Source of the DNA: an uncultured Verrucomicrobiae bacterium
Lineage (GTDB): Bacteria; Verrucomicrobiota; Verrucomicrobiia; Chthoniobacterales; UBA10450
Assembly (NCBI GenBank): GCA_963834385.1
Contig: CAWIBO010000002.1
Coordinates: forward strand, 32,001 to 96,000
Length of the DNA: 64,000 nucleotides
Direction of reading: 5' to 3'
Shown: one piece after another, positions 46,248-49,251 of the stretch
Layout: every line of letters starts with the position of its first letter
How positions within the stretch are numbered: position 1 is the first letter of the stretch
Notes under the pieces: generated by a model
The model's database searches: none
What the model was told of the DNA's origin: nothing
The model's input: the letters and a program-made list of their open reading frames with translations, nothing else
Program-made: the position numbers and the translations under genes

Positions 46248-46559
46248 TCAATCCTCGTTGAAGCGCGCCTGGATCAGGTCGCCGATCTCACGCAGGGCCC
46301 GGTCGGCATCCGGTCCGTCGCATTCGATCCTGAGTTTCGAGCCCTGCCCGGCGGCCAGCATCATCAGGCCCATGATGCTTTTGCCGTTGACCTTTTCGCC
46401 TTCCTTTTCCACCCAGACCTCGCAGCGATAGCGGCTGGCAATGCGCACGAACATGGCCGCGGGCCGGGCATGCAGCCCGAGGCGGTTCACGATCGTCATC
46501 TCCTTCTCCAGTTTGCTCCCGGGAGGGTTGTGCGCGGATTTACGGTTCAAGAGTCCCAT
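46248..46559 (-). CDS. ptsH: HPr phosphocarrier protein
   Basis: GLHARPAA (His15) and NGKSIMGLMML (Ser46). Confidence 0.95.
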   Translation of the reverse strand: MGLLNRKSAHNPPGSKLEKEMTIVNRLGLHARPAAMFVRIASRYRCEVWVEKEGEKVNGKSIMGLMMLAAGQGSKLRIECDGPDADRALREIGDLIQARFNED

Positions 46560-47544
46560 CTTTTGCTCCCATCAAGTTGAGCAACTTTGCGTTAAATTCC
46601 AGCGCGCTGTTCTTTCCCATGCTTTTCAGCTTCTGGTCCATCGCCGCCACCTCGACCAGGCGGGCCACGTCGCGCCCCGGCCGGATGGGAATGGTCACAT
46701 GCGGCACCCGCATCTTCAGGATCTCATAATATTCCCGTTCGATCCCGATGCGGTCGATCTCCTCGATCTCGGTCCAGTCTTTCAGGGTCACCACCAGATC
46801 GAGCCGTTTCTCCACCCGGATGGCGCCGATGCCGAAGACGGAGACCACGTTGATGATGCCGATCCCGCGCACCTCCATGTGGTAGCGGGTCAGCTCGGGC
46901 GAGGTGGCCATGAGTTCCCGGCCCTCCAGCGAGGTGATGCGGGTGGCGTCATCGGCCACCAGGCTGTAGCCCCGCTCAATCAGGCCAAGGACGCATTCGC
47001 TTTTGCCCACGCCACTCGACCCCCGGATGAGGACGCCAATGCCAAGGATGTCGACCATGCTCCCGAATTCCGTCGCCGTCGGGGAGAAGGCCATCTCCAG
47101 CGCGATGGTGGCGGCATTGATAAACTTCATCGTGATCGCCGGGGTGCGAAAAACCGCGATCTCCATTTCCTCCGCCACTTCCTGCAGCTCCGGGGCGAGG
47201 TGAAACCCGCGGGAAACGACCAGGCAGGGAATTTTTTGCTCGCAGAGCGCGCGGAAACGCTTGATCCGCACCGCGGGCGAGAGGCTTTTCAGGTAGGAGT
47301 TCTCGGCGGCGCCCAGGACCTGCACCCGTTTGTCGGCGAAATAATTATAGAAGCCGGAGAGGGCCAGACCGGGACGGTTGATGGTGGGCTCGCGAATTTT
47401 CCGGTGGAAGCCGACCTGTTTGCCTTCCAGCCGGAGCTGGAGCCGGTTGGCGTGATCGCGGAAAAAGCTTTCCACCGTGACCACCGGGACGTTGCGCCGA
47501 ACTGCGCTCTCGGAGGTGATGGTCTGGGCGGCGCGCTCCGGCAT
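46540..47544 (-). CDS. hprK: HPr kinase/phosphorylase
   Basis: INRPGLALSGF, GSSGVGKSE, LVADD, HMEVRGIGII, PIRPGRD. Confidence 0.96.
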   Translation of the reverse strand: MPERAAQTITSESAVRRNVPVVTVESFFRDHANRLQLRLEGKQVGFHRKIREPTINRPGLALSGFYNYFADKRVQVLGAAENSYLKSLSPAVRIKRFRALCEQKIPCLVVSRGFHLAPELQEVAEEMEIAVFRTPAITMKFINAATIALEMAFSPTATEFGSMVDILGIGVLIRGSSGVGKSECVLGLIERGYSLVADDATRITSLEGRELMATSPELTRYHMEVRGIGIINVVSVFGIGAIRVEKRLDLVVTLKDWTEIEEIDRIGIEREYYEILKMRVPHVTIPIRPGRDVARLVEVAAMDQKLKSMGKNSALEFNAKLLNLMGAKDGTLEP

Positions 47545-47637
47545 GTTATCCTAGCTGTATCGCGGGAAGAGGAGGATTGCCACCATTACCCGTCTCCGCG
47601 CGGGGAGGAGCGGAGGAGCCGCCGCCCCTTTTGCGGA

Positions 47638-47666
47638 TTGACGCCCGCCGGCCAGCCTCCTATACC
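47638..47666 (+). promoter_or_regulatory. Putative sigma70 promoter for the 47704 gene
   Basis: TTGACG-N17-TATACC, ending 37 nt before the ATG, followed by a GGAG Shine-Dalgarno-like motif. Confidence 0.45.
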
Positions 47667-47703
47667 GGACGGCGACCGCCATAACCTTCAACCGGAGAAT
47701 ATT

Positions 47704-48657
47704 ATGCGTCTTATCTGCGTTGGTATCCTGCTGATGGTCAGTTTTTCCCCTGCCTTCGCGCGTTCACCGCGGCAGGTTGAAGTTCCGGCCACGATCCTCA
47801 CGGTTTCGCAGGAGGATCTTCGGGACATAGGGGTGAGCCTCGACCTTTCCGGGGCCACGGGCCTGGCCTTGAATCCCACGGCGCAGGTTCCCGCGCCGGG
47901 AGCGATCATCGCCCAGGCGAGCTATTTTGGCCTGAACGGCTTCGAGGTGGGCAACACCGACTTCCACTTTTATGGGTTCAACGCCGCGGTCCGCCCGGGA
48001 CGCTGGCCCGTGGAGTTCAGTGTGGGGATCAACCATCTGCTGGTGGAGAGCGAAATACGCGGGATCGAGGAGCAGATCGAGGACGTTTCCGGCTCGGCGG
48101 GCGTGAAGATCCTGCTTCGGCCAAGCATCAGCCGAAACGACGCCGGGTTTGACCTCCGAAGCATCATCGACGGCACTTCGCTCGCCGTCGGCGGCGGCAT
48201 CAACGACACCTTCTTTGGCAACGCCCGCGGGTACGCCGCGGCCACCACGCATTGGCCGGCCGGGATCCGGACCCATCTCGGTTTTCGCTTTGATCACCTC
48301 GAGATCGACGACGGAAAATCCCGGCGGGAGTCGGACCAGCCTTCCGTTTACGGCGGGCTGGAGATCCCGTTGATCAAGACGACCGTGGCCATCCCCGACA
48401 ACCGCACGATGGTGCTCGGCGGCCTGACGCTTTTCGGCGAAATGGGCTCGAAGAGCATCGACAGCGCGCGGGCGGAGATTCCCTTTGCCACCGGGGTGAG
48501 GGTCAATTCGCGCGGCATCCCTTTCCTGAGCGATGTGCCCCTGCTGGGGCGCTTGTTCTTCACCGCGGGCGCGCAGCGCACGGGCCTGGGGGATAACGTG
48601 AACCTGATCATCATGATCACCCCACATCTCGCGGGCGACTCCGGGACCGATTATTAG
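47704..48657 (+). CDS. Exported hypothetical protein: beta-barrel-like sequence interleaved with secretin signature motifs
   Basis: Signal peptide (AFA); QVEVPATILTVSQEDLRDIGV, KTTVAIPDNRTMVLGGL, GIPFLSDVPLLGRLF, NLIIMITPHL; also GATGLALNPTA and amphipathic strands. Confidence 0.7.
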   Translation: MRLICVGILLMVSFSPAFARSPRQVEVPATILTVSQEDLRDIGVSLDLSGATGLALNPTAQVPAPGAIIAQASYFGLNGFEVGNTDFHFYGFNAAVRPGRWPVEFSVGINHLLVESEIRGIEEQIEDVSGSAGVKILLRPSISRNDAGFDLRSIIDGTSLAVGGGINDTFFGNARGYAAATTHWPAGIRTHLGFRFDHLEIDDGKSRRESDQPSVYGGLEIPLIKTTVAIPDNRTMVLGGLTLFGEMGSKSIDSARAEIPFATGVRVNSRGIPFLSDVPLLGRLFFTAGAQRTGLGDNVNLIIMITPHLAGDSGTDY

Positions 48658-48666
48658 GCGGCGCGC

Positions 48667-49251
48667 CTATTTCGAGGCCGGATCGATCAGGCCGAATTCG
48701 CCGCTTTTGCGACGGTAAAGGACATTGACCATGGAAGTGCGCGCGTTCATGAAAACGAGGAAGTGGCGGTGCGACATCTCGAGCTGGAGCACGGCTTCGT
48801 CCACGAACATCGGTTTGAGCGGGACCGATTCCTTGCGCACGACCGGGTGATGGGATCCCTCTTCCTCCTCGGCTGATTCGACCGGTTCCGGCTCGAGGAC
48901 ATGTTCCTCGAGGTGGTGCACGATGTCGTGCCGCGGCCGGTGCTTGCGCATCAGCCGCGTCTTGTACTTGCGCATCTGGCGGGCGACCTTGTCGGTCACG
49001 GCGTCGATGGCGGCGTACATGTCGTCCGTTTCCTCAGTGGCCTCGATGGTGATGTGATTGGAACAGACGAGCACGACCTCGGCGCTGTGCCGGTATTTCA
49101 CGACCTCGAGGATGACGTGGGCCTCGATGATTCGGGGATAATCCAGGTGCAGACCCTCGATCTTCTTCGTGACGTAATCGTTGATCGCGGGGGTGATCTG
49201 GAGATGGCGCCCGGTGATTTTGACGGGCGGATGAGCGTTGGCTGTTTGCAT
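48667..49251 (-). CDS. hpf: Ribosome hibernation promoting factor (long HPF)
   Basis: ITGRHLQIT, DMYAAID, RQMRKYK, KPMFVDEAVLQL, VLYRRKSG. Confidence 0.95.
   Translation of the reverse strand: MQTANAHPPVKITGRHLQITPAINDYVTKKIEGLHLDYPRIIEAHVILEVVKYRHSAEVVLVCSNHITIEATEETDDMYAAIDAVTDKVARQMRKYKTRLMRKHRPRHDIVHHLEEHVLEPEPVESAEEEEGSHHPVVRKESVPLKPMFVDEAVLQLEMSHRHFLVFMNARTSMVNVLYRRKSGEFGLIDPASK

Follow-up and report, generated by a model that had tools for sequence, protein, structure and literature searches.

Five secretin-derived segments in native order within a predicted exported 12-stranded barrel of a verrucomicrobial genome

How does an exported protein of 317 residues come to carry five signature motifs of the secretins, in the order in which secretins carry them, within a chain that otherwise does not resemble a secretin? 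The question is raised by a gene in a 64,000-nucleotide stretch of contig CAWIBO010000002.1 (the window) from an uncultured member of the Verrucomicrobiae. An earlier note, made from the sequence of the window, had left a choice between a barrel gene into which pieces of a secretin gene were pasted in frame and a highly derived minimal secretin. Our preferred reading is that the gene (P0001) encodes a monomeric barrel with ordered secretin grafts, which would have arisen by short-patch recombination and would function as a tag; taken as a whole, we give this reading a probability of roughly 0.6. The anatomy by itself, a barrel with five grafted secretin-core pieces in native order, we hold with high confidence.

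The frame of P0001 (47704-48657, +) translates without a stop into 317 aa, as first described, and a GGAG resembling a ribosome-binding site lies 7-8 nt ahead of its ATG. Judged by eye, aa 1-19 (47704..47760, +) are signal-peptide-like and a possible sigma-70-like promoter (TTGACG, 17 nt, TATACC) occupies 47638..47666 (+); a consensus promoter scan upstream of the gene returned 0 sites, missing this pair because the second hexamer has no final T. The gene is solitary and flanked by two housekeeping genes, hprK (46540..47544, -; TIGR00679, E 3.5e-105) and hpf/yfiA (48667..49251, -; TIGR00741, E 4.2e-22), the latter ending 9 nt from the P0001 stop. Its neighbours hprK, hpf, lptB and ptsH all run on the other strand, and no T2SS, T3SS or pilus genes were found among them. 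Neither GC nor GC3 sets the gene apart, as its GC3 is 0.81 versus 0.81-0.87 in five neighbours and the segments (0.84) hardly differ from the rest (0.82). The P0001 frame stays open for 421 codons further upstream (46441-47703, +), antisense to hprK and ptsH, which is probably a shadow of high GC and does not indicate a longer gene. Direct and inverted repeats around P0001 are short, chance-like pairs, none of which consistently marks the segment junctions.

Across 29 hprK loci of the same family, hpf lies directly upstream in seven (2-268 nt between the matches), is separated by an intervening gene in one, and is missing within 1.5 kb in 21. Since the arrangement differs in this way, the site is variable and the gene is a lineage-specific addition. 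Two of these loci (L171, L183), as well as the same-family and background tallies, include unpublished genomes (G002, G007, G014) that enter negative and background counts only. More generally, most relatives have different genes upstream of hprK (L163-L191), often without hpf, which marks the region as a hotspot of gene turnover.

All five motifs reported in the earlier note are present in secretin order. Segment 1 (aa 22-45; 47767..47838, +), corresponding to the strand and helix with which the secretin domain opens, begins about 2 residues behind the signal peptide and precedes the N-terminal motif of the barrel family described below; it is missing from plain barrels, i.e. family members without segments. 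Segment 2 (aa 133-143; 48100..48132, +), a motif resembling the secretin gate strand and the weakest of the five, overwrites the end of barrel strand 4 and is followed by about 10 extra turn residues. Segment 3 (aa 224-241; 48373..48426, +) is a secretin hairpin with VLGGL at its end; it forms an insertion in the turn that links strands 8 and 9, lengthening both (E207-230 and E234-248 in the AlphaFold2 model), with about 12 extra residues compared to the family. Segment 4 (aa 270-285; 48511..48558, +), the secretin amphipathic helical loop (AHL; within PF00263 positions 130-167), is an insertion in the turn that joins strands 10 and 11. Segment 5 (aa 300-309; 48601..48630, +), the last secretin strand, is modelled as strand 12 and stands in place of the family's own last strand, which ends in G/N-x-x-F in 39 of 44 plain barrels and is presumed to be the BAM signal; P0001 does not have this ending. 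Alignment to homologues thus places the segments at the N-terminus, in three turns and in the last strand. Barrels of this type have both termini in the periplasm as standard, so the sites of segments 2-4 are periplasmic turns and no surface loop is affected.

The segments were scored with position-specific matrices built from verrucomicrobial secretins (the wrong-frame rows L148, L152 and L156 left out), giving 22.6, 15.0, 33.7, 33.6 and 23.8 for segments 1 to 5. Segments 1, 3, 4 and 5 exceeded each of the 162 plain-barrel controls and of the 1000 shuffles, and none of their scores was matched in 1.62 million windows from the 3874 other long ORFs of the genome; the score of segment 2 was matched by one of the 162 controls, by three of the 1000 shuffles and once in the genomic windows. 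For segment 4, not one of 879 million shuffled windows reached 27, and its score of 33.6 marks it as an AHL beside the 33.3 obtained for the GspD-type secretin of the host. Pfam PF00263 reports P0001 at 35.8 bits (cut-off 27.5), though in two stretches and not continuously over its length, the best being aa 268-309 aligned to positions 130-167 of 169, and the NCBIfam secretin models give 44 bits at best versus cut-offs of 238-750. N0-N3 domains are lacking, as had been stated at the outset (no match to Secretin_N/PF03958 at E up to 10). A proteome scan found no other protein with such segments, leaving P0001 as the sole mosaic found in this genome (G000; 2.9 Mb, 5 contigs), which encodes three full-length secretins away from P0001. 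The gene content of this genome suggests a soil-dwelling member of the Verrucomicrobiota.

The remainder of the chain belongs to a different family. The scaffold (aa 46-299; 47839..48600, +; interrupted by segments 2-4) derives from an unnamed barrel family of Abditibacteriota (A5): P0001 aligns to a profile of 44 plain barrels over 223 columns (HHalign 99.9%, E 3.9e-31), and an HMM of the same 44 sequences matches it at E 4.8e-43. Invariant columns of the alignment, which includes P0001, comprise among others G50, G53, N57, P58, E104, K135, N173, R195, D197, E246 and R292. About three quarters of the mature chain align to this non-secretin family, while P0001 and a host-type secretin profile share 64 C-terminal columns. 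The plain-barrel profile itself matches the secretin profile with a probability of 0.1 on the HHalign scale (0.1%), and neither PF00263 nor YjbH (PF06082) has a match among the 44 plain members. P0001 is therefore a variant of the family and not a typical member, aligning with it throughout but ending in another last strand. The view that the sequence between the motifs is not secretin-like was borne out, as aa 45-223 alone match no Pfam family; the proposed likeness to YjbH was not, since PF06082 matches neither P0001 nor any other protein of the genome nor the 44 relatives.

An exhaustive search with P0001 returned 38 other hits, of which 35 are plain barrels of about 250 core residues, so that most homologues lack the segments; the other three are a second chimera (P0002), a secretin fragment and a short secretin-like protein. 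Among 88 barrel ORFs from retrieved loci, the motifs occur in the two copies of the P0001 gene and in no other, and each of the 24 named genome loci with a family member carries an Abditibacteriota or Armatimonadota label. Plain barrels stand alone, with no neighbours conserved across 16 loci. Some plain members (P0004, P0009, P0033, P0091, P0019) have long C-terminal extensions, a FecR fusion or a tandem duplication, and the extensions recall inverse autotransporters. P0086 and L007:1498-2307(-), the latter from one genome of the same order, represent a distant sister family without secretin motifs (HHalign 97.8%).

The AlphaFold2 model of P0001 is a closed barrel of 12 strands (mean pLDDT 81), calculated from an alignment that consists almost wholly of plain barrels, with segments 1 and 4 at low confidence (pLDDT <50 for aa 22-39 and 57 for aa 271-280). 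It superimposes on the translocator of NalP (Z 18.6, rmsd 2.8, 218 aligned), on FapF (Z 18.2, rmsd 3.0, 221 aligned), which is also the top match by Foldseek, and on a COG4313 channel (Z 17.4, rmsd 2.9, 218 aligned). The P0002 model likewise has 12 strands (pLDDT 86; Z 17.5 to FapF), and there are no secretins among the 50 best fold matches of either model, which in itself argues against nothing. Together with the family homology over 223 columns, the P0001 model confirms that the intervening sequence is a barrel, as had been suspected.

These results speak against the highly derived minimal secretin of the earlier note, which would assemble into a 12-15-mer ring. Five core motifs in order would be expected of such a protein, its nearest Atlas entries by features are short secretin-domain clusters (0.92 and 0.91), and secretins without N-domains exist, as outlined in PMC8134430. 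The Atlas likewise returned nothing but secretin-domain clusters for P0001 and for aa 45-223 (0.88-0.90, to be taken as leads), missing the barrel family. However, about three quarters of the mature chain belong to a family without secretin likeness, the model closes into a barrel of 12 strands, and neither pilus nor T2SS genes adjoin P0001, so we give this alternative very little credence. When P0001 (aa 20-317) was modelled in a complex with the Amuc_1098-type secretin domain of the host, the score was 0.00, which counts neither for nor against an interaction.

An artefact of assembly or consensus is a further explanation to which we attach next to no weight. It could be invoked because P0001 is a singleton and because the junctions of segments 1, 3, 4 and 5 are unbridged by the short-read pieces listed. 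Yet no match to the segments turned up elsewhere in the genome among the BLASTn matches listed, and most of 47830-48362 is covered by short-read contigs from two studies, each with 1-5 differences. A 288-nt short-read contig bridges the right junction of segment 2 with 1 difference, and another (48611-48762) bridges the junction between P0001 and hpf. One run could be related to the source sample, and X2 and X4 contributed no useful coverage of P0001. Since no donor DNA was found in the assembly and the same architecture appears in three further records, we regard an artefact as very unlikely.

These three records, P0002, P0087 and P0088, were obtained from Logan/ENA, JGI and NCBI, share about 90% identity and all pass the PF00263 cut-off. 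The source of P0087 names it 'Flp pilus assembly secretin CpaC'. Their motifs are kept through substitutions, and a counterpart of segment 5 stands in place of the G/N-x-x-F strand in each. The lineage has a 16-residue insert at segment 1, which is not called in P0088, while segments 2, 4 and 5 lie at sites equivalent to those in P0001, shorter and in register; segment 3 of P0002 does not score above background, and segment 4 of P0088 scores weakly. No relatives of P0002 appeared in a scan of genome contigs.

Did both lineages inherit the segments from one ancient interleaving of barrel and secretin, the inserts of P0002 having since shrunk by most of their length? Both lineages are altered at the same sites, and a single clade of all chimeras is not rejected by the AU test (p=0.294). 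On the other hand, in trees calculated without the segment columns (27 and 64 rows), the two lineages are joined in 0 of 200 bootstrap trees with either set, P0002 is nearer to plain barrels (about 40% identity) than to P0001 (27%), and P0001 has the same nearest barrel sequence as the plain P0089 group, being sister to plain P0089 with a support of 99/89 (27 rows) and 56/61 (64 rows), albeit as a long branch. A common origin thus seems unlikely, and two origins are favoured.

Concerning the source of the scaffold, the barrel profile found nothing in 300 genomes of the same family or in 300 of the same phylum, and P0002 as query found barrels in 14 of 151 genomes of the phylum of G061. A word-based search of 4925 candidates (lengths 174-555) matched P0001 to itself alone. 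Because the profile is missing from same-family and same-phylum genomes, a transfer from the Abditibacteriota side is likely, and the barrel of P0001 was probably acquired horizontally; the transfer would be old because GC3 matches that of the host.

The model of secretin pieces pasted into a barrel gene holds as far as the in-frame pieces are concerned, since neither outcome named in the earlier note as refuting it, a continuous PF00263 alignment or segments in all homologues, was observed, but the copying process it implies lacks a DNA match to a donor. BLASTn at word size 7 gave no fragment match to the three secretin genes of the genome among the matches listed, all being at chance level, and in register the segments share 40-65% identity with host secretins, no single one of which is matched. 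Thus no donor DNA was found in the genome, and the grafts should be old or foreign. The loop grafts of G062, too, agree with secretins from the same genome at no more than 36 of 51 bases, so that recent copying is not apparent. At the protein level, in plain barrels, the site of segment 2 already ranks 3rd of 235 and that of segment 3 2nd of 237 in secretin likeness, while those of segments 4 and 5 fall outside the top five positions. Since two of the four testable sites were already secretin-like, the pattern partly fits microhomology-guided patches of the SPDIR type, i.e. patches of 3 to about 100 bp at microhomologies, as outlined in bioRxiv 10.1101/2023.11.22.568220. The segments of P0001 (30-75 bp) fall within this size range, and such patches likewise come from unrelated DNA. 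However, SPDIR is very rare in that outline, its donors are heterologous DNA generally, and the outline gives no case of a single gene family supplying five patches in order, and doing so in more than one lineage. Random short-patch recombination gives no reason for a repeated secretin donor, so selection or a recognition bias must supply it.

Alternatively, the motifs could have converged by point mutations and small indels, binding the membrane or a periplasmic factor, with no DNA being copied. The missing donor would then be expected, and segments 2, 4 and 5 of P0002 are indeed in-register blends of barrel and secretin with hardly any change in length. Segments 1, 3 and 4 of P0001 and segment 1 of P0002, however, are insertions of about 10-26 residues that fit several secretin-specific positions at once, and convergence leaves the native order unexplained, which makes it improbable.

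Secretin motifs were also found beyond the barrels. Around G061 (Abditibacteriaceae-type), five of 15 genomes encode six exported proteins with the AHL motif alone: a vWA protein (L224:1550-3007(-), score 31), three VIT-vWA proteins (L227:2235-4421(-), 29; L226:861-3371(+), 27; L248:1045-2751(-), 21), an N-acetylmuramoyl-L-alanine amidase (L246:615-1448(+), 24) and, weakly, a large propeller-containing protein (L247:1-2721(-), 19). Per 1.5 million shuffled windows, 0.015 are expected at 24, 0.11 at 21 and 0.33 at 19, hence the two lowest scores are weak when taken alone. Two VIT-vWA homologues (L226, L248) retain the motif at the same place, and the loop-only grafts lie in low-complexity or terminal stretches of unrelated scaffolds.

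Such locations might suggest functionless scars of a process that copies secretin DNA and is tolerated in periplasmic turns and disordered tails, all the more as P0001 was found in one lineage only and the confidence of its model is low at segments 1 and 4. Against this, the motifs remain near consensus even though the DNA match is gone and the barrel has strongly diverged, they persist in the P0002 trio and in the two VIT-vWA homologues, and five ordered in-frame pieces are hard to obtain without selection. We therefore consider scars rather unlikely.

In our preferred reading of grafts with a function, the barrel gene would have come from the Abditibacteriota side by horizontal transfer, and five secretin-core pieces would have been grafted onto it when short patches of secretin-gene DNA recombined with it, assisted by microhomology; selection and a long period of divergence would have followed. 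Comparable grafting would have taken place separately in the P0002 lineage and, for the loop motif alone, in the vWA proteins and the amidase. The sequences of these proteins are observed, and independent grafting is their probable origin. As for the role of the segments, the AHL is the most conserved secretin sequence, with a proposed central role in associating with the membrane and inserting without BAM, as outlined in PMC6155069, and our reading of segment 4 draws on this proposed role. The segments might form a secretin-like tag on the periplasmic side, in which the AHL would anchor in the inner leaflet and, together with the swapped last strand, would shift recognition and insertion of the barrel from the BAM signal to secretin-handling factors. 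Such an anchoring or assembly tag is a tentative suggestion drawn from sequence. A broader claim, that grafting is a recurrent process in several envelope-rich lineages (Abditibacteriota, Verrucomicrobiota and probably others) and that the pieces are kept as a portable tag, is plausible while falling short of an even chance; the tag would anchor proteins in the membrane, allow them to insert without BAM or have them recognised by factors that handle secretins. If true, P0001 would be the extreme case, with all five pieces and the BAM signal traded for secretin parts.

Compared with known systems, P0001 shares five ordered core motifs including the AHL with secretins (PF00263; GspD, PilQ, InvG; the Amuc_1098 family NF042912), but it lacks N0-N3, a continuous secretin domain and secretion-system neighbours, and the remaining chain has another fold. 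The mitochondrial GspD outlined in PMC8134430 is likewise short, with the AHL and without N0-N3, yet it represents one uninterrupted C-terminal stretch of the secretin domain and forms a pore, whereas the motifs of P0001 are dispersed in a different fold. FapF (5o65), the COG4313 channel (4rl8) and the NalP translocator (1uyo) resemble the modelled 12-strand barrel. Identity to these is 8-10%, there is no Pfam or PDB sequence hit, and a shared fold shows no function. To our knowledge, none of the three has been described with secretin segments. The closest likeness is to the A5 family (sister P0086/L007), with continuous homology and invariant residues kept; unlike P0001, its plain members have none of the five segments, and the last strand of most of them ends in G/N-x-x-F. 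While usual chimeras join whole domains, in P0001 one outer-membrane fold is interrupted at five points by pieces of another, unrelated one and still stays intact. The recurrence of a similar patchwork in a second lineage points to an undescribed process in exported proteins. A literature search at the level of titles and abstract openings, covering few subscription journals, found no published description of secretin pieces being grafted. The small barrel, with its plain relatives as controls, offers a natural experiment on whether the amphipathic loop of secretins suffices for BAM-independent insertion. Such chimeras are also a source of mis-annotation as they pass the Pfam secretin cut-off, e.g. 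P0087 as CpaC.

Several other secretin-like genes were encountered along the way. In G022, from the same family as the P0001 genome, an exported 514-aa frame (L229:4318-5859(+)) has compressed secretin motifs in order in its first half, fused to an unrelated C-terminal domain. P0039, an exported protein of 256 aa, carries motifs 1, 3, 4 and 5 spaced by sequence of unassigned origin and is possibly another mosaic or a true mini-secretin. Of 16 retrieved stretches, five (L249-L253; four giant or weak PF00263 matches and one short) had no segment above the thresholds. In two families of the phylum of P0001, tandem pairs of divergent secretin-like genes of 480-720 aa recur (L254-L261) in genomes with up to 18 PF00263 matches each; considered as mosaics, they were rejected, being eight divergent full secretin-like genes. 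A genome of the same order encodes a BlaR1/M56-like N-terminus (judged by eye) joined to a degenerate secretin-like domain (L161:154-2196(+)). Finally, Abditibacteriota genomes possess several small, degenerate secretin-like genes of 300-400 aa with one N domain (L222, L223, L225, L211), three of which stand in tandem in G062.
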